This document shows positions 655 through 53,322 of a stretch of 64,000 nt of DNA, piece by piece. Both the position numbers and the translations under genes were made by a program. The notes under the pieces are model-generated. The model was not told the DNA's origin. It made no database searches and saw nothing but the letters and a program-made list of their open reading frames with translations. Every line of letters begins with the position of its first letter. Position 1 is the stretch's first letter. This DNA is from Escherichia phage FL31: sequence record PP400782; one strand, 5' to 3'.

Positions 655-683
655 CTAGATTTCCTCAATTATCCATAGGAGCA

Positions 684-712
684 TTATACTCTGCTCCCGA
701 GAGTTTGTAAAC
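684..712 (-). promoter_or_regulatory. early promoter-like element (-35 GTTTAC, 17 bp spacer, -10 TATAAT)
   Basis: Minus strand reads GTTTACaaactctcgggagcagagTATAAT; near-identical cassette at 29846-29874. Confidence 0.45.
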
Positions 713-936
713 TATTTTACTAAAGATTCAATATACTCATGAAGAGCTTTAGTAGCTACTGCCCACTTATTCTGATATTCATTTTTCAGATTAGCACGAG
801 ACTGAACTAACAAGCTGTCATTAGTCGGAGGCAAAGATTCTAATCGTTGAATCTGGCGCCCATAAATCATAGCCGCCATTTCAGATTCATAGATAAGCCC
901 TTTAATGTGTTCAAGCTGTTCTTTAGTCATTGGCAT
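712..936 (-). CDS. hypothetical protein (74 aa)
   Basis: ORF with AAGAGGAAAA SD. Confidence 0.4.
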   Translation of the reverse strand: MPMTKEQLEHIKGLIYESEMAAMIYGRQIQRLESLPPTNDSLLVQSRANLKNEYQNKWAVATKALHEYIESLVK

Positions 937-3716: not shown

Positions 3717-3734
3717 GTGGGACCGAAGTCCCGT
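3717..3734 (-). terminator. UUCG-tetraloop hairpin at the nrdB 3' end (weak terminator or stability element)
   Basis: gggac-ttcg-gtccc stem-loop on the minus strand overlapping the nrdB stop; poor U tract. Confidence 0.3.
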
Positions 3735-4375: not shown

Positions 4376-5185
4376 CTAGTCGTTGAACCTTGCTTTGCAA
4401 TTGTCGCCGTGCCATCGTTTATATGTTGATGGTGATAAATCTTTCTTATCACAATATGGACAATTCAATTGAATTCTATTTGGATTTAATTTACATCTAT
4501 CATTATGTTTTAGATAAAATCCAGGACCTTTACCAATGTGACCGCAGAAATCACATGTGATTTCTTTTTGTGCAGGATGGGTTCCGTTCTTAACCATTTC
4601 TAATGTTTTTGCTGATGTTCTTTTCTTATGGTCTTCTGACAAGAAATGATGTGAACCGTCATTTACCCGTTTTGATTGAGTTTCTGACTGCATTTTACCA
4701 CCGCAAAATACATGAGTACCTTCTTTTATAGCTGCAATATTGCGTTCTTTAACTTTTGCAATATGCTCAGCTTGTTGAAAATTATGTATACCTAATGCAA
4801 CTCTATTTAAATTAGATTTACGCTGTATTTCACCGTCTAAAAGATGAAATGTACCATTTTCTATCTTAGATTTAATAGAGGCAATATTTTTAGCTCGTAC
4901 TTCAGGGATATTAAAAATCTGGATTTCTCTAGATTTTGCGGCTTTAGAAGCTAATTCAGAAATTTCTTCAGGAGAATATTTCATTCTAAGCTTTATAGCG
5001 TGACAAGCCTGGTAATCTTTTTGAGCTAAATGTATATCATAATGTTCCTGTATAGAAAGGCACATCAAATTATCTAAATCATTATTTTCACGGTTACCGT
5101 CTTTATGATGGATTTCGTATGTTCTTCCATCAGAATCTTTAGGTATAGGTCCGTTAGCATCTATCCAAATTTTTCTATAGTTCAA
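4376..5185 (-). CDS. intron-encoded HNH homing endonuclease (I-TevIII-like, full length 269 aa)
   Basis: HNH motif EIHHKDGNRENNDLDNLMCLSIQEH; repeated NIAAIK..GTH modules; C-terminal Cys-rich zinc finger; apparent TTG start with AAGAGG SD. Confidence 0.8.
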   Translation of the reverse strand: MNYRKIWIDANGPIPKDSDGRTYEIHHKDGNRENNDLDNLMCLSIQEHYDIHLAQKDYQACHAIKLRMKYSPEEISELASKAAKSREIQIFNIPEVRAKNIASIKSKIENGTFHLLDGEIQRKSNLNRVALGIHNFQQAEHIAKVKERNIAAIKEGTHVFCGGKMQSETQSKRVNDGSHHFLSEDHKKRTSAKTLEMVKNGTHPAQKEITCDFCGHIGKGPGFYLKHNDRCKLNPNRIQLNCPYCDKKDLSPSTYKRWHGDNCKARFND

Positions 5186-6060: not shown

Positions 6061-8343
6061 TTAAAGCTTACAAGCAGAACAATCTTCAGCTTTAGGTGTT
6101 TCTAATTCATAGTCATCTGTACCTGACCCATCACGGGTGTTATGATAGTAGAGGTTTTTTCCGCCAAAGTACCAGAAGTAAAGCAGATCGTCAAGCATTA
6201 CTGACATTGGCACTTTACCTTTCTCAAATACTGCAGGGTCATAGTAAGTATTAGCAGAAGCAGATTGGCACACCCATTTCAACATGATAGCAACTTGGGT
6301 CAAATAAGGTTTATTACCTTTCTTAGCAAGTTTCCACGCGTAGTCGTAAAGACTCATGTTATGTTCTATATTAGGAACAACCTGTCGGAAGTTGCCTTCT
6401 TTAGATTCTTTAATACTTACTGGACCACGTGGGGGCTCAATCCCGTTTGTAGAGTTCGATACTTGACTGCTTGACTCACAAGGCATGAGTGCAGACAACG
6501 TTGAGTTACGAATTCCATGTTCTTTGAGTTCAGCTCGAAGTTCTTCCCAGTCACAGACATAGTTCGGGGCTGCGATTTGGTCAATCTTTTTATTGTACCA
6601 GTCGATAGGTAATTCGCCTCTAGACCATTTAGTGTCTGAATAATACTCACAAGGTCCTTTTTCTTTGGCGAGTTTGATTGATGCTTTGATAAGGCCATAT
6701 TGCAATCTCTCGAACAATTCATGGGTCAAATCGTTAGCGTCTTCATATGAAGCAAAGTTAGAAGCTAACCATGCAGCATAGTTCGTCACACCAACACCAA
6801 GATTACGACGCTTTTTAGCTTTTAAAGCTTCTGGAACCGGATAATCTTGATAGTCTAACAGGTTATCAAGTGCACGTACTTGTACTTCAGCAAGTTCATT
6901 AATTTTATCTTGGTCTTGCCAATCAAATTTATCTAATACAAAAGCAGATAATGTGCATAAACCAATTTCAGCATCAGGACCATTCACATCATTAGTTGGA
7001 ATAGCGATTTCACAACATAAGTTACTCTGACGAATTGGAGCTTTTTCACGAATAAACGGAGTGTAGTTATTCGTGTTATCAACAAACTGTGGATAAATTC
7101 GAGCAGTGCCAGAACGTTCAGTCATGAACAATTCAAAGAGTTCTAGTGCTTTGATTCTTTTCTTTCTGATTGTTGGGTCTTTTTCAGCTTTCTCATAAAG
7201 CTCACGGAATTTATCTTGATCTTCAAAGAACGAGTAGTATAGTTCGCCTGACATTTCGTGAGGGCTAAATAAAGTAATATAATCATTTTTACCAAGGCGT
7301 TCCATCATAAGGTCATTAATCTGAATTCCGTAGTCCATATGTCGAATACGGTTTTCATCCACGCCTTTGTTATTTTTCAGAACTAATAGGTTCTCTACTT
7401 CTAAGTGCCACATCGGATAATACGCTGTAGCAGCACCACCACGAATACCGCCTTGAGAACAAGATTTTACTGCAGTTTGGAAATGTTTCCAGAATGGAAT
7501 AACACCTGTATGTCGAACTTCACCCATACCGATCTTAGAACCTTCTGCACGAAGCATACCAACGTTGATACCAATACCAGCTCGTTTAGAAATATATTCA
7601 ATAATTGATGCTGAAGTTTTGTTAATAGATTTTAACGAATCACCGGCTTCAATAACTACACAACTAGAGAACTGGCGAGTCGGAGTACGAGCACCTGCCA
7701 TAATTGGAGTTGGCAATGAAACTTGATGAGTAGAAACGGCATCATAAAAACGAATAATATGTTTCAAACGGTCATGAGTTTCGTCTTGGTGTAAGGCCAT
7801 ACCAATAGCCATGATAGCAAACTGCGGAGTTTCATAAATCTTACCAGTTGTTTTATCTTTAACCAGGTATTTTTCTTTAAGCTGCATAGCACCAGCATAA
7901 GTCAGGTCAAAGTCTCGTTCATGTTTAATCTGTGAATCGAGATAAATGATTTCTTCTGCTGAATATTGAGACAACAGCTCAGGGTCATATTTGCCTTCAT
8001 TAACACAGTAAGAAATATGGTCGATAAAAGCAGGTGGTTCAAACTGCTCATATACATCTTTACGAAGTGCAAACATTAGACCTTTGGCGGCGACATACTG
8101 ATAATCAGGTTCTTCGACAGAAATCGAGTTAGCTGCAACTTTAATACAAATCTTCTGAATATCTTTGGTGCTCATCCCATCAACCAGATGAGTCTTAATT
8201 TCTTCATACAATTCGTATGGGTCAATTTGTGTTCCTTCACATTGCCAAGTTAAGACTTGAATAATTTTCTGTGCATCAAAATTTTGTGATACACCACTGC
8301 TCTTAGTTACTTGCATATATTCCTCGGATAGATTGATAGACAT
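6061..8343 (-). CDS. nrdA: ribonucleotide reductase large subunit NrdA (class Ia)
   Basis: 760 aa; catalytic Cys region NLCCEIAIP and C-terminal tail consistent with NrdA. Confidence 0.95.
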   Translation of the reverse strand: MSINLSEEYMQVTKSSGVSQNFDAQKIIQVLTWQCEGTQIDPYELYEEIKTHLVDGMSTKDIQKICIKVAANSISVEEPDYQYVAAKGLMFALRKDVYEQFEPPAFIDHISYCVNEGKYDPELLSQYSAEEIIYLDSQIKHERDFDLTYAGAMQLKEKYLVKDKTTGKIYETPQFAIMAIGMALHQDETHDRLKHIIRFYDAVSTHQVSLPTPIMAGARTPTRQFSSCVVIEAGDSLKSINKTSASIIEYISKRAGIGINVGMLRAEGSKIGMGEVRHTGVIPFWKHFQTAVKSCSQGGIRGGAATAYYPMWHLEVENLLVLKNNKGVDENRIRHMDYGIQINDLMMERLGKNDYITLFSPHEMSGELYYSFFEDQDKFRELYEKAEKDPTIRKKRIKALELFELFMTERSGTARIYPQFVDNTNNYTPFIREKAPIRQSNLCCEIAIPTNDVNGPDAEIGLCTLSAFVLDKFDWQDQDKINELAEVQVRALDNLLDYQDYPVPEALKAKKRRNLGVGVTNYAAWLASNFASYEDANDLTHELFERLQYGLIKASIKLAKEKGPCEYYSDTKWSRGELPIDWYNKKIDQIAAPNYVCDWEELRAELKEHGIRNSTLSALMPCESSSQVSNSTNGIEPPRGPVSIKESKEGNFRQVVPNIEHNMSLYDYAWKLAKKGNKPYLTQVAIMLKWVCQSASANTYYDPAVFEKGKVPMSVMLDDLLYFWYFGGKNLYYHNTRDGSGTDDYELETPKAEDCSACKL

Positions 8344-14220: not shown

Positions 14221-17200
14221 ATGGTTGACATCAAACGTAAGTTCAGGGCCGAAGATGGTCTTGACGCAGGCGGTGATAAGATAGTTAACGTTGCGCTTGC
14301 TGACCGCACAGTTGGCACCGATGGCGTGAACGTTGACTTTTTGGTGCAAGAAAACACCGTACAGAATTATGACGATACGCGCGCGTATACAAAAGATTTT
14401 ATTGTTCTTTATGATAATCGTTTTTATCAAGCTTTAAGCGATATTCCAGCTCCGGCAGGCCCTTTCTCTTTGGGTAAATGGAAGGCAACTCGTACAGATG
14501 CAGATTGGATTACAGTTCAAGGCGGAGATTTCCAATTATCAGTAGGTAACTCTATTGCGGTTGATACTTCAGCTGGCACTGATATTAATTTCACTTTGCC
14601 TCAAAATCCTTTAGATGGCGATACAGTTATTTTGTCTGATATTGGCGGTAGAGTAGGCTATGTAAAAGTTCAAATTACTGCAGCGGCTCAAAGTATTGTA
14701 AACTTTAGAGGACAACAGGTTCGTTCAGTTTTAATGACGCACCCAAAATCTAAAATGGTCTTCATTTTTAGCAACCGCCTATGGCAAATGTATATTTCTG
14801 ATTATGAACGTAATGCAGTCACAGTAACTCCTGCTAAGCCGTATCAGGCGCAACCTAACGATTTTATCATTCGTCGTTTTACATCAGCCGCTCCTATTAA
14901 TATTACATTGCCTCGCAATGCTAATAATGGCGATATTATTAATTTAGTTGATTTAGACAAATTAAACCCGTTATATCACACAATTGTCAAAACTTACGAT
15001 GATACAACTTCTATACGAGAAGCTGGTGTTCATGTAGCAGAAGGACGTAATACTGCGGAAGCGTTCTTTGTTTATGATTCTGCTAATAGCTTATGGCGTG
15101 TTTGGGAAGGTGACCAGAAATCTCGTTTACGTATAGTTCGTAATGATACTGATTTACGCCCTAATGAAGAAGTTCTTGTGTTTGGAACTAATAATGATAC
15201 AATCTCGACGGTAAATCTTACTTTGCCTACAGATATTTTGTCTGGCGATACTGTTAAAATATCGTTGAATTATATGCGTAAAGGGCAAACTGTAAAAATT
15301 AAAGCTGCTGAAGGCGATACAATTGCTACCAGTATTTCTTTATTACAGTTCCCAAAACGTTCAGAGTATCCACCTGATGCACAATGGGTTTCTGTTAGTG
15401 AGCTGGAATTTAATGGCGATACTTCGTATGTACCTGTACTTGAGTTAGCTTATATAGAAGATTATTCATCTGAAACAAAATATTGGGTAGTTCAACAAAA
15501 CACTGTAACCGTCGAACGAGTCGATGCATCGAGCAATACAACTCGAGCTCGTTTAGGTGTTATTGCTCTTGCTTCTCAAGAGCAAGCAAATGTTGATTTA
15601 GAAAATGCTCCTGGTAAAGAACTGGCTATTACTCCGGAAACATTAGCAAATCGTACAGCAACTGAAACTCGTCGTGGTATTGCTCGTATTGCAACAACTG
15701 CACAAGTTAACCAGAATACCGATTTTGCATTCCAGGATGATTTGATTATTTCTCCTAAGAAATTGAACGAACGTACAGCAACTGAAACCCGTAGAGGTGT
15801 TGCTGAAGTTGCAACTCAGGCTGAAACTAATGCTGGCACAGATGATACCACTATTATTACTCCTAAGAAATTGGATGCCCGTCAAGGTTCTGAAGTTTTA
15901 TCCGGTATTGTAAAATACACATCTACGACTGGTACTACAGCTGCTACTATTCGTGGTAATGCTGGGACTAACGTTTATAACAAATCCGTAGATAATTTAA
16001 CTATTTCTCCAAAGGCTCTTGACCAGTATAAAGCTACCCCTACTCAACAGGGCTCAGTAATTCTTGCTATTGAAAGCGAAGTTATCGCTGGCGAATCACA
16101 AGCTGGTTGGGCTAATGCTGTAGTGACCCCTGAAACTCTGCATAAGAAAACTTCTACTGATGGACGTATTGGTTTAATTGAAATTGCTACGCAAGCAGAA
16201 ACTAACACTGGAACTGATTATACTAGAGCAGTAACGCCTAAGACGTTAAATGATAGGAAAGCTACGGAAGGATTATCTGGTATAGCCGAAATTGCTACGC
16301 AAGTTGAATTTGATACTGGAACTGATGATACTCGTATCTCAACTCCACTGAAAATTAAAACTCATTTTGATTCTTCTGACCGTACCAGTGTTAATTCTGA
16401 TTCCGGACTTATTGAAGAAGGAACCTTGTGGAACCATTATACTCTTGATATTTCTAAAGCAAATGAAACACAACGTGGTACACTTCGTGTAGCGACCCAA
16501 GCTGAATCTAATGCAGGAACTTTAGATGACGTTCTTATTACTCCTAAAAAGCTTTTAGGGACTAAGTCCACTGAAACATCTGAAGGTGTAATTAAGGTTG
16601 CTACTCAAGATGAAACTGTAACGGGAACTTCCACTAATACTGCTGTATCACCTAAGAATTTAAAATGGATTGTTCAATCAGAACCATCATGGACTGCTAC
16701 TACAGCAATTCGTGGATTCGTTAAAACTTCGTCTGGTTCTATTACATTCGTTGGTAATGATACAGTTGGTTCAACACAACCTTTAGAATCATATGAAAAA
16801 AATAGCTATGCTATATCTCCATATGAATTAAACCGTGTACTTGCTAACTATTTGCCATTAAAAGCAAAAGCAGCTGATAGTAATTTGTTAGATGGTCTAG
16901 ATTCTCTTCAGTTCATCCGTAGAGACATCGACCAGACGGTTAATGGTTCTTTAAGTCTTACTAAACAGACCAACCTGAGTGCCCCTTTGGTATCTACAAG
17001 CACCGCTTCTTTTGGTTCCGAAGCATCTGTTACTCGTAGATTAACTCTTAATGACTCTAGCGGTTCCGAAATAGTTTTCACTAAAGGAACCCAATCTCTT
17101 AGTAATAAAGAGAATTTCGTTGTTAGAGTATGGGGTAATAGCGCTACAGATGGTGCCCGCGATACAGTATTTGAAGCGGGTGACGAAACCGGATACCATT

Positions 17201-29354: not shown

Positions 29355-29801
29355 TTAATAACTCTGCAGAATGAATTTGAAATTATCTGCCAGAAGACGG
29401 TTCATTTCAGTGAGTGTTTGATATTCTGATGTATGGTTGCGAGTGAATGCCAGAGCCAATTGACCTTTACCATAACCAGTGGTCAGTGGTTTCATGTTCT
29501 TAGCTGCAACAAAGATTACATCATATTCAATATTGTTAGTGCCCATGGTACGGGCTAGTTGCGAACGGCCTTGACGAATGTGAGAAAGAATTGCATCCAA
29601 CCCTTGTTTAGAACGTTGACGTCCTACAAAGAACCGTGCTGCTACTTGTCGCCAATCGGATGAACCTTTAACAAAGAAGTAAAAACCTTCACGAGAACGA
29701 AACTCTTTAGAAACTTCGGAACCGTATTCGCCATTACGAACTACTGCAACAACTTCACCGCCAACTGCCAGAAGGTCTTTACGAGTTAAATATTTGGACA
29801 T
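29355..29801 (-). CDS. ndd: nucleoid disruption protein Ndd
   Basis: 148 aa; [13 protein letters not shown]...[14 protein letters not shown]...[22 protein letters not shown] matches recalled T4 Ndd. Confidence 0.85.
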
Positions 29802-29845
29802 GCTAATTTCCTCAATTGATTAATGTTTTTGTAATCCATGAGAGC

Positions 29846-29874
29846 ATTATACTCTGCTCTCAAGAGTTTGTACA
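29846..29874 (-). promoter_or_regulatory. early promoter-like element for ndd (-35 TGTACA, -10 TATAAT)
   Basis: Minus strand TGTACAaactcttgagagcagagTATAAT; paralogous to cassette at 684-712. Confidence 0.45.
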
Positions 29875-29877
29875 ATT

Positions 29878-30078
29878 TTATTCGGCCATATCAGAACGTT
29901 CAAAAAGCTCTTCAACAGTTAAACATTCAGTGTCATCTTCAATAAAGAATCGAGTCCAACACGTTGGGGCGATACAGTTATGAGTTTGTCCGGCGATAGA
30001 AGCTACACGAATAAGCTGCTGACCATTATTCAGAACAAATTTTTCACCAATTTCAACATCTTTAAAAAGCTTAGCCAT
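29878..30078 (-). CDS. hypothetical protein (66 aa)
   Basis: ORF. Confidence 0.4.
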   Translation of the reverse strand: MAKLFKDVEIGEKFVLNNGQQLIRVASIAGQTHNCIAPTCWTRFFIEDDTECLTVEELFERSDMAE

Positions 30079-31452: not shown

Positions 31453-31477
31453 AAGAAAAAAGGGGACCGAAGTCCCC
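31453..31477 (-). terminator. rho-independent terminator after rIIB
   Basis: Minus strand gggga-cUUCGg-tcccc followed by UUUUUUU. Confidence 0.65.
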
Positions 31478-39263: not shown

Positions 39264-39788
39264 TCATTTTAGCAAAATAAAATCAACTTGTTCTGCCAAT
39301 GAACGTCTAAACATTAATTGACAACTTCCGAGGATGAAATCAGGTGCTTCATAGACCGCGATGTAGTATCCTTTAGCTTTCAAGAGTTCAACATCTACCT
39401 GGTCATCAAACCATGCATAAACCGCGTCAACGCTTTCAAATCCAAAATAGAACCCTTGAGCCCAATCTTCACTCAATTCAAATGTGTACTCAATTCTATG
39501 GTATCTTAAGATATTTTGTTCAAGAAGTTTGTCTTCATTTACTGTAGGACGATTAGGGACATTATAGTTGTCGCCGTGATGGTAGAAGTTACCTGAGAGT
39601 ATTCCATGCTTATCAAGGAACTCCCATGTTTCTTCAGAGTTGTCAGTGCCGGACCAACCATAAGGTGAGCGAGGTTCTTTATTCCAAGAGGTTTCCCAAA
39701 TTCTGACGGCTTTACCGTCTTCGATAGCAATTCCTGGTAATGATTCACGTTGAGTACAAAAACTACGTTCTACGCGGTAAACTAACAT
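39264..39788 (-). CDS. hypothetical protein (174 aa)
   Basis: ORF with GAGGAG SD. Confidence 0.45.
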   Translation of the reverse strand: MLVYRVERSFCTQRESLPGIAIEDGKAVRIWETSWNKEPRSPYGWSGTDNSEETWEFLDKHGILSGNFYHHGDNYNVPNRPTVNEDKLLEQNILRYHRIEYTFELSEDWAQGFYFGFESVDAVYAWFDDQVDVELLKAKGYYIAVYEAPDFILGSCQLMFRRSLAEQVDFILLK

Positions 39789-39814
39789 ATTATTCTCCTC
39801 TGGTTGATATGGTT

Positions 39815-39843
39815 ATAATATCAAAACCAGAGGAGAAGTAAAC
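39815..39843 (-). promoter_or_regulatory. early promoter-like element (-35 GTTTAC, -10 TATTAT) nested in a 12-bp inverted repeat that includes the downstream SD
   Basis: Minus strand GTTTACttctcctctggttttgaTATTATaaccatatcaaccagaggagaataatATG. Confidence 0.45.
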
Positions 39844-40732: not shown

Positions 40733-40794
40733 AATTTCTCTCTCTTTGTTTAAGTTGAATTCATTATACTCCATCCGTCCTTGGATGTACAACA

Positions 40795-41289: not shown

Positions 41290-41355
41290 AATGTTTTTCC
41301 TGTTTGGTTAGGATAGAAAGATTATACTCCAACCGTCCTTGGTTGTAAACTGGTT

Positions 41356-45202: not shown

Positions 45203-45231
45203 ATAGTATCATCATCGGAAGAGTTTGTACA
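45203..45231 (-). promoter_or_regulatory. early promoter-like element (-35 TGTACA, -10 TACTAT)
   Basis: Minus strand TGTACAaactcttccgatgatgaTACTAT; shares the AACTCT box with cassettes at 684 and 29846. Confidence 0.4.
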
Positions 45232-52540: not shown

Positions 52541-52833
52541 TCAGCGTGATAAACTGTAGCGCCTTTAGTATCATTCATTTGAACTACATCTACCGGAGAA
52601 ATTACTCGATAGAGACGTGGTTCACCTCCATAAGAGCGTGCTGCTCGTCCTGCATAAATCTTTGCTAAACCGATATCTTCAGTAAAGAATACACGATCCA
52701 AGTTTTTCTTACGTCCAGTTTCAGACAGAACTCCTGTTTCTTCAGGAGGACAAAGCATGTTTTCGATGTTAGCTGAACTACTTGAACCGTGATAAAAAAT
52801 CTTAAATTCTGCTTTACAATCGATGGTTTTCAT
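52516..52833 (-). CDS. small Arr-like (rifampin ADP-ribosyltransferase-like) domain protein
   Basis: FYHGSSS...RVFFTEDIGLAKIYAGRA...RLYRVISPVDV aligns by eye with recalled Arr motifs (FYHGT...IYFSALMEPAVWGAELA...YIYIVEP); from memory, not searched. Confidence 0.4.
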   Translation of the reverse strand: MKTIDCKAEFKIFYHGSSSSANIENMLCPPEETGVLSETGRKKNLDRVFFTEDIGLAKIYAGRAARSYGGEPRLYRVISPVDVVQMNDTKGATVYHAEWAFCEEI

Positions 52834-52859
52834 TTTGTTCTCCAGTAGTTGATAGGTCT

Positions 52860-52888
52860 ATAATAACACAACTACTGGAGAAGTAAAC
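52860..52888 (-). promoter_or_regulatory. early promoter-like element (-35 GTTTAC, -10 TATTAT) nested in an inverted repeat that includes the downstream SD
   Basis: Minus strand GTTTACttctccagtagttgtgtTATTATagacctatcaactactggagaacaaaATG. Confidence 0.45.
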
Positions 52889-53263: not shown

Positions 53264-53292
53264 AATGTTTTCCTCTTGGTTTGTGTAAGTAC

Positions 53293-53322
53293 ATCATATC
53301 ATGCCTAGAGGAAGATGTAAAC
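53293..53322 (-). promoter_or_regulatory. early promoter-like element (-35 GTTTAC, -10 TATGAT)
   Basis: Minus strand GTTTACatcttcctctaggcatgaTATGAT. Confidence 0.4.

Follow-up and report, generated by a model that had tools for sequence, protein, structure and literature searches.

Two intergenic gaps in the genome of Escherichia phage FL31 hold copies of one repeat. We consider it probable that both are homologous immediate-early cassettes of the PeSL (promoter-early stem-loop) type, each fitted with a hairpin that would form in read-through RNA, and that the cassette was copied between loci. The window, that is, the whole stretch of DNA analysed (64,000 nucleotides of record PP400782), is 96–99% identical to Mosigvirus (RB69-like) genomes. 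Copy 1 consists of the repeat at 671–716 plus its leader, and copy 2 of the repeat at 29834–29879 plus its leader (window coordinates); the genes around both run on the minus strand.

The repeat and its two copies

Self-comparison of the window confirmed the repeat. The two 46-nt segments align without gaps at 39 of 46 positions (85%; family D7 of the repeat search, recounted), share the same orientation and are spaced 29,163 nt apart. The initial annotation had reported the repeat about 29 kb apart in one orientation, with coordinates that proved right to within 1–5 nt; it had also called the repeat a near-identical cassette of 50–60 bp, and here the repeat stands but the wording does not, the identity being 85% and not 95% or more. 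An exact 18-mer, GAGCAGAGTATAATGCTC on the minus strand, occurs in the window at 679–696 and 29842–29859 only, even when up to three mismatches are allowed; these two matches compare with 0.04 expected, and none of 100 shuffles reached two. Beyond the repeat, copy 2 contains 16 nt (29818–29833) that are absent from copy 1, and past this indel the copies are again identical over 12 nt, AATTGAGGAAAT, at 659–670 and 29806–29817. This second block spans the Shine-Dalgarno region, and the plus-strand string ttcctcaatt, given in the initial annotation, makes up most of it.

The copies were also set against a promoter background formed by copies 1 and 2 and the 17 other definable early promoters of the window (19 in total). 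Anchored at the -10, the 171 possible pairs have a mean identity of 49% (sd 9.5). The closest pair is copies 1 and 2, with 78% over 54 nt (z of about 3.2), followed by pairs at 74%, 72% and 72%. Because other promoter sub-families attain 70–74%, the two copies occupy the upper end of a continuum of similarity. Apart from each other, neither copy has a match in the window that exceeds 28/46.

Anatomy of the cassettes

Both copies fill the entire intergenic gap with the same series of elements: a stop codon, a -35 of the form T(T/G)TACA, a 17-nt spacer, the -10 TATAAT, a leader, GAGGAAA and ATG. As each extends from the upstream stop to the Shine-Dalgarno sequence and ATG of the next gene, each is a complete intergenic module. 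Read on the minus strand, copy 1 is TAG(stop)-TTTACA-AACTCTC-GGGAGCA-GAG-TATAAT-GCTCCT-ATGGATAATT-GAGGAAA-TCTAG-ATG, and copy 2 is TAA(stop)-AAT-TGTACA-AACTCT-TGAGAGCA-GAG-TATAAT-GCTCTCA-TGGAT-(16 nt)-AATT-GAGGAAA-TTAGC-ATG. The features are as follows.

Copy 1
712–714, minus: stop TAG of the pseT.1-like ORF (712–936), adjoining the -35 (ORF list; pseT.1 is named in a related Mosigvirus record)
706–711, minus: -35 hexamer TTTACA (11/12 to the sigma-70 consensus, 17-nt spacer)
700–705, minus: AACTCT box in the spacer, just after the -35; part of the signature TACAAACTCT
692–698, minus: hairpin 5' arm GGGAGCA (pairing, fold)
683–688, minus: -10 TATAAT, lying in the 8-nt loop GAGTATAA (684–691) plus the first base of the 3' arm
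677–683, minus: hairpin 3' arm TGCTCCT, in the discriminator region (pairing, fold)
676, minus: putative transcription start A676, from the usual 7-nt distance after the -10
652–666, minus: Shine-Dalgarno GAGGAAA (660–666) and ATG (652–654) of the 99-aa ORF (355–654)

Copy 2
29878–29880, minus: stop TAA of the ndd.1-like ORF (29878–30078), 3 nt upstream of the -35 (ORF list)
29869–29874, minus: -35 hexamer TGTACA (promoter score 10/12)
29863–29868, minus: AACTCT box (signature match)
29855–29862, minus: hairpin 5' arm TGAGAGCA (pairing, fold)
29846–29851, minus: -10 TATAAT, in the loop GAGTATAA (29847–29854)
29839–29846, minus: hairpin 3' arm TGCTCTCA (pairing, fold)
29839, minus: putative transcription start A29839
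29818–29833, minus: 16-nt leader segment TACAAAAACATTAATC, without counterpart in copy 1
29799–29813, minus: Shine-Dalgarno GAGGAAA (29807–29813) and ATG (29799–29801) of ndd (29355–29801)

Third promoter
45203–45231, minus: early promoter TGTACA, 17 nt, TACTAT, outside the close family of copies 1 and 2

Copy 1 separates the pseT.1-like ORF from the 99-aa ORF, and polynucleotide kinase (pseT) follows two genes downstream. Copy 2 lies directly upstream of ndd, as initially proposed: the product matches Pfam Phage_T4_Ndd (E = 4e-89) and is 59% identical to T4 Ndd, and the ndd.1-like ORF on the other side is 45% identical to T4 Ndd.1. A Pfam search gave no match for the 99-aa, 63-aa or 66-aa ORFs. 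Paralogy of the downstream genes was considered as a cause of the likeness and rejected, as the translations of the 99-aa ORF and ndd show no evident similarity by inspection.

T4 early promoters (Pe) are characterised by a GTTTAC-like -35, an A-rich upstream region and a strong -10 (PMC2988021), and 57 early promoters were predicted in RB69 by Nolan et al. 2006 (PMC1524935). Copies 1 and 2 are the top-scoring promoter-like sites of their regions against sigma-70 (11/12 and 10/12), placed between an upstream stop and a downstream Shine-Dalgarno sequence and ATG. They have -10-to-ATG leaders of 28 nt (copy 1) and 44 nt (copy 2), and their genes lie on the minus strand, which is the early strand. 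Directly upstream of the -35 stand TAGTAAAATAG in copy 1 and GAATAAAAT in copy 2, both short and overlapping the end of the upstream ORF. From the -35, spacer, -10 and Shine-Dalgarno-ATG arrangement we infer that both are T4-type sigma-70 early promoters, which agrees with the promoter/leader cassette of the initial annotation. One detail of that description has to be reversed: the AACTCT box, described as preceding the -35, follows it on the functional minus strand, inside the spacer. In the predicted scheme, host sigma-70 RNA polymerase would recognise T(T/G)TACA, the 17-nt spacer and TATAAT, transcription would start about 7 nt past the -10 (A676 and A29839), and the short leader would carry GAGGAAA and the ATG. 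Copy 1 would then express the 99-aa ORF and the following genes down to pseT, and copy 2 would express ndd.

The promoter at 45203–45231 had been listed as bearing a related box. The shared decamer TACAAACTCT, which occurs three times in the window against 0.27 expected, bears this out and is its sole link to copies 1 and 2; a wider cassette likeness fails, as the promoter otherwise matches at 26/46, no nearer than any other early promoter. Elsewhere in the window, a second similar pair of early promoters (40742–40791 and 41300–41349, minus strand) is 77% identical over 48 nt and has the spacer CCAAGGACGG(A/T)TGG. By position these two match two adjacent 'MotB-like' genes annotated in NC_041863, and the same promoter type is found at the left end of a 300-bp insertion at locus L020. 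GAGGAA-type Shine-Dalgarno sequences are frequent in the window.

Relation to published PeSL cassettes

The PeSL cassette was defined by Arbiol et al. 2010 (PMC2839356) as a stop codon, an AT-rich region, a -35, a -10, a stem-loop with G-T pairs, a Shine-Dalgarno sequence and an ATG, the stem-loop lying 'most commonly between the -35 and -10 or overlapping the -10'. PeSLs cluster in hyperplastic regions and act as recombination linkers that yield indels and mini-circles, and one RB49 PeSL stem-loop lowered expression of a downstream reporter to an extent similar to that seen with the rrnB T1 terminator (PMC2839356). Comeau et al. 2014 extended the class to T4/PST with the promoter TTTACW-N17-TAYWAT, giving the ndd.4/.5 exchange as an example (PMC4122927).

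Every PeSL feature that a sequence can reveal is found in copies 1 and 2, and at this level they are PeSL-type cassettes. The stop lies 0 and 3 nt from the -35, GAGGAAA and ATG follow, and a stem-loop with G-T pairs overlaps the -10 of a sigma-70-type early promoter fitting TTTACW-N17-TAYWAT. As with PeSLs, there are many copies per genome, mainly among non-essential early genes, including four close copies in NC_041863, and cassettes of this family sit at insertion, deletion and replacement junctions of relatives, the ndd region being a published example. Three differences should be kept in view. First, the published PeSLs are from RB49/phi1, T4/PST and nt-1/KVP40, whereas these are from an RB69-like Mosigvirus. 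Second, terminator activity and mini-circles were shown for RB49/phi1 cassettes only, whose stems are of the form G4...C4, while the stem here has no U-tail. Third, T4/PST stems stand 'just upstream of the promoter' according to the legend in PMC4122927; here the stem encloses the -10. The kind of element is already published; what is new is the Mosigvirus member, with a sub-family of four copies to which the T4 motB promoter also belongs.

A hairpin around the -10

Because the spacer is complementary to the discriminator region, the cassette encodes, in addition to the promoter, a hairpin of 7–8 bp, with most of the -10 held in the 8-nt loop GAGTATAA. The arms are GGGAGCA/TGCTCCT in copy 1 and TGAGAGCA/TGCTCTCA in copy 2, and the copies differ by a compensatory exchange of G-C for A-T. 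The inverted repeat first noticed around TATAAT is thus real and is kept by compensatory changes.

The same holds across the family. We assembled 21 distinct variants from three IMG/VR pattern scans, T4 and a complete Mosigvirus genome. Among these related sequences, which were collected by a pattern fixing the loop and the -35 side, 98.2% of the cells in the stem are paired, compared with 36–47% when the 3' partner is slid by 1–3 columns. Double-sided changes occur in four of the eight pairs (16 cells), and none of 500 shuffles reached the observed pairing or covariation score. Compensated arm pairs include GGGACCA/TGGTCCC (T4 motB), GGGGTCA/TGACCCC and GAGAGCA/TGCTCTC, a variety that shows the pairing, and not the sequence, to be conserved. 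The hairpin is the centroid structure in copy 1, copy 2 and T4 motB; in the last it extends to 13 bp because ACUCU, from the AACTCT box, finds a partner in GGAGU beyond the 3' arm.

Non-Watson-Crick cells on the sense strand comprise 20 G.T and 3 A.C, or about six kinds of G.T and two kinds of A.C when counted as independent kinds of change; this excess faintly hints at structure at the RNA level, where G.T would be G.U. One of the NC_041863 copies has an inner A.C mismatch in the stem. Whole-region fold energies of copies 1 and 2 are not better than those of shuffles (z = -0.4 and -0.3), and the local hairpin alone stands out. Taken over the full set of 19 early promoters, folds of the sense strand do not differ significantly in energy from those of the antisense strand (p = 0.31), and a search of the whole window against Rfam gave no covariance-model match at the gathering threshold.

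The arrangement reaches beyond this family. The 19 early promoters of the window lie on the minus strand between 683 and 53321, and 15 of them have a -10 enclosed by at least 5 bp in the minimum-energy fold (mean z -2.2), so the architecture is general, with arm sequences that vary between sub-families. One such sub-family, with arms AGGACTA/TAGTCCT (30647, 51575, 30135 and 10425), contains G.U pairs and has much weaker antisense folds.

Possible roles of the hairpin in read-through RNA

The 3' arm ends at about the putative +1. A transcript from the cassette's own promoter would therefore lack the 5' arm, and the hairpin could fold only in RNA that reads through from upstream. We infer that it attenuates such read-through transcripts, or defines and protects their 3' ends, which would insulate neighbouring early units from one another.

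A precedent for a promoter inside a hairpin is the translational gating of T4 e, soc, 49 and I-TevI (PMC3014915). Copies 1 and 2 resemble these genes in that the 5' arm of the helix lies upstream of an internal promoter, which limits folding to read-through transcripts. They differ in where the 3' arm falls: in e, soc, 49 and I-TevI it covers the Shine-Dalgarno sequence or AUG, while here it ends near +1 and leaves the accessibility of the Shine-Dalgarno sequence unchanged. Masking of that sequence in read-through RNA was modelled and rejected (accessibility 0.65 vs 0.59 in copy 1 and 0.48 vs 0.56 in copy 2), and by these folding predictions the gene behind each of copies 1 and 2 is free of translational gating by the hairpin. 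A different layout is found at further early promoters, at 52831–52888 and 39786–39843 and more weakly at 53265–53321 (all minus strand), in which a 13–14 nt spacer arm (TTCTCCAGTAGTTG, TTCTCCTCTGGTT) is complementary to a leader with the Shine-Dalgarno sequence GGAGAA. For the promoters at 52887 and 39842 the predicted unpaired probability of the Shine-Dalgarno sequence is 0.02–0.04 in read-through RNA vs 0.53–0.68 in the promoter's own transcript, a design that would amount to translational gating as in T4 e, soc, 49 and I-TevI, but around early promoters.

The hairpin might instead act as an intrinsic terminator proper, at which the upstream transcription unit would stop in front of each cassette's gene. 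The reporter result with the RB49 stem-loop speaks for this, as does the GenBank record of Mosigvirus SA79RD, in which a promoter and an overlapping rho-independent terminator are annotated at the copy-1 orthologue, the latter a software prediction (WebGeSTer/TransTermHP). However, the stems of copies 1 and 2 are not followed by a U-run (AUGGAUAAUUGAGG and AUGGAUUACAAAAAC), the tails being ATGGATAATT and ATGGATTACA. A terminator scan made no call at either copy, though it does call the GGGGACTTCGGTCCCC-T8 terminators nearby. The missing U-tract and the silent scan make classical intrinsic termination unlikely at both sites. The same UUCG-tetraloop hairpin, GGGGACTTCGGTCCCC or GGGACTTCGGTCCC, is found at two distant sites, 31462–31477 and 3719–3732, and looks like a repeated terminator module. 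At 31462–31477 it is called by the scan on both strands and has a T-run after it on the minus strand.

Distribution among T-even-like phages

A search for the cassette in other T-even genomes, suggested at the outset, was productive. By blastn it is found at 1252 places in 729 phage records; T4 has a single copy, and genomes closely related to the window have three or four. The complete Mosigvirus genome NC_041863 has four close copies, every one on the early strand, at 13.7, 79.3, 109.0 and 154.1 kb, and two of the four copies of this type fall in the present window. The signature TACAAACTCT-N7-AGAGTATAAT-N8 stands upstream of at least eight non-homologous genes, a count drawn from 11 distinct N-termini, some of them orthologues. 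The genes behind the cassette are ndd (in two lineages), motB (in T4 and others), the 99-aa ORF on the pseT side and further ORFs of 160, 153, 109–110, 197 and 114 aa. Eight IMG/VR matches to the 18-mer were dismissed as chance, since they fall within coding sequence of an unrelated phage.

The only T4 copy is the motB cassette (NC_000866, about 7175–7219, minus strand), which reads TTTACAAACTCT-tgggacc-AGAGTATAAT-ggtcccgtGGAG; between 135 and 169 kb, T4 has no cassette relative within 12 mismatches of 39. The T4 motB early promoter shares the signature and the hairpin position, with compensated arms, but at a different locus, and unlike T4 motB the two MotB-like genes of the window use the promoter type with the CCAAGGACGG(A/T)TGG spacer (40791 and 41349).

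Cassettes at genome junctions

Among relatives that are 93–97% identical, three comparisons place the cassette at a structural difference. Locus L020 differs from L011 and L017 by the 300-bp insertion, which carries another early promoter and a 101-aa ORF, with the crossover point within the -35 region common to both, aaaaaataat(t/g)(t/c)ACAAAC. L019 has a 480-bp ORF right after the cassette; L022 lacks exactly this ORF and has the next gene directly behind the same cassette. In L019 compared with L008, the replaced segment begins at the cassette end. The indel between L019 (about 4480–4960) and L022 (about 10445) comprises exactly a 160-aa ORF, between two ATGs (an ATG...ATGA overlap) in genomes that are 95–96% identical, and this ORF-exact indel is bounded by microhomology and not by two cassettes. 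A candidate junction at the ATG between L152 and L169 was rejected: both loci are collinear (94%), and the apparent break reflects simple divergence of the motB N-terminus. Close relatives of the window are collinear with it, and the junctions are seen in other relatives and between T4 and the window at ndd.

These borders could also be read at the DNA level, with the inverted repeat folding into a cruciform or hairpin to which a nuclease or recombinase, such as endonuclease VII, would be directed, so that the cassette would be a site-specific recombination hotspot and not an RNA element. Arbiol et al. speculated that the PeSL stem-loop is a target for recombination proteins, and some mini-circle crossovers lie in the loop (PMC2839356); cassettes bordering indels would fit as well. 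We nevertheless find the idea improbable. Crossovers in relatives fall in the -35 region or at the ATG and not in the stem, and a stem of 7–8 bp with an 8-nt loop makes a poor cruciform. By cell count, G.T is tolerated far above A.C on the sense strand, while a cruciform needs pairing in both strands. Short homology, moreover, suffices for T4 recombination (Singer 1982, as cited in PMC2839356).

Homologous exchange through the cassette remains our preferred reading, and the suggestion that such repeats are regulatory modules and recombination substrates, an idea already contained in the PeSL papers (PMC2839356, PMC4122927), gains comparative support from the many different genes served, the indel and replacement borders, and a similarity that goes by genome.

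Probable copying between loci

Over 46 nt, the window's ndd cassette agrees with its counterpart at ndd of another lineage at only 32/46, with copy 1 at 38/46 in this comparison and with other GAGCA-type cassettes at 39–40/46; within the second lineage, the cassettes of ndd and motB agree at 44/46. On this comparison of 46-nt sequences in a few genomes, cassette similarity tracks the genome and not the locus, as expected from inter-locus copying or gene conversion. We take the likeness of copies 1 and 2 to have arisen in this way, by homologous (ectopic) recombination or gene conversion. After copying, selection on promoter and hairpin together would hold the cassette, and the same short homologies would serve as junctions for exchange of gene cassettes between related phages.

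Within one genome, direct recombination between the two copies would be unproductive, since it would delete the approximately 29 kb between them, which by synteny contain the essential genes 32, 33, 34–37 and 52, and leave no viable phage. The relevant exchanges would therefore be inter-genome or non-reciprocal. The same interval also contains coding repeats of another kind at 15625–16658 (plus strand), which recur every 108 or 120 nt (families D2, D8 and D9; 63–76% identity) and by synteny lie within the proximal long-tail-fibre gene (gene 34 region).

T4 offers a view of the ndd locus without a working cassette. Its ndd.1 and ndd are orthologous to those of the window, but there is no promoter between them: in the ndd.1-ndd spacer (L163, 31041–31100) no sigma-70 promoter is found, the -35 is lost and the -10 is represented by a degenerate TATTCA. 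A GGCCGU/GCGGCC hairpin nevertheless occupies the same position, with a leader that can be aligned to the ndd leader of the window. The spacer looks like a decayed cassette in which the hairpin has outlived the promoter.

Convergence would explain the likeness without any copying between loci, if both stretches had been selected toward one optimal T4-type early promoter and ribosome-binding site. The general resemblance of the early promoters in the window (about 49% over 54 nt, with other pairs at 70–74%) and the abundance of GAGGAA-type Shine-Dalgarno sequences lend it something, but the copies are also identical at positions that RNA polymerase does not read, namely AACTCT and GAGCAGAG in the spacer and GCTC in the discriminator, and they share the exact 18-mer. 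The same non-consensus signature recurs at many loci and at T4 motB, and similarity tracks the genome. Convergence thus appears quite improbable. Least probable of all is an operator, a palindrome through which a dimeric phage or host protein would shut off or modulate these early promoters: the inverted repeat is centred on the -10, a classical operator position, and the shut-off of T4 early transcription is not fully explained (PMC2988021), but a sequence-specific site would not allow arms that change freely with pairing kept (GAGAGCA/TGCTCTC, GGGACCA/TGGTCCC, GGGGTCA/TGACCCC) and tolerate G.T intermediates, and most other early promoters have unrelated arm sequences at that position.

Implications for T-even-like phages

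The PeSL-type cassette may be seen as a portable unit of about 60–80 bp in which a strong promoter is packed together with an RNA hairpin and a ribosome-binding site, and which could be placed before almost any early gene. From its presence we predict that ndd and the ORFs close to pseT are each served by an immediate-early promoter of their own, while T4 ndd is without one. The covariation provides independent support for the stem-loop half of the PeSL concept; in other respects the findings are confirmatory and incremental. We also put forward, tentatively and at somewhat less than even confidence, that the hairpin is an RNA element selected for itself and no by-product of the promoter, which at each early promoter marks read-through RNA for attenuation, or defines its 3' ends, and is able to outlive its promoter, and that the cassettes are homogenised or re-seeded within a genome by ectopic gene conversion over tens of kilobases. 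If this is true, early-promoter identity would evolve in concert within each phage lineage and not locus by locus. Recognition of the cassette aids the annotation of early transcription units and partly explains the mosaic boundaries in variable regions of these genomes.
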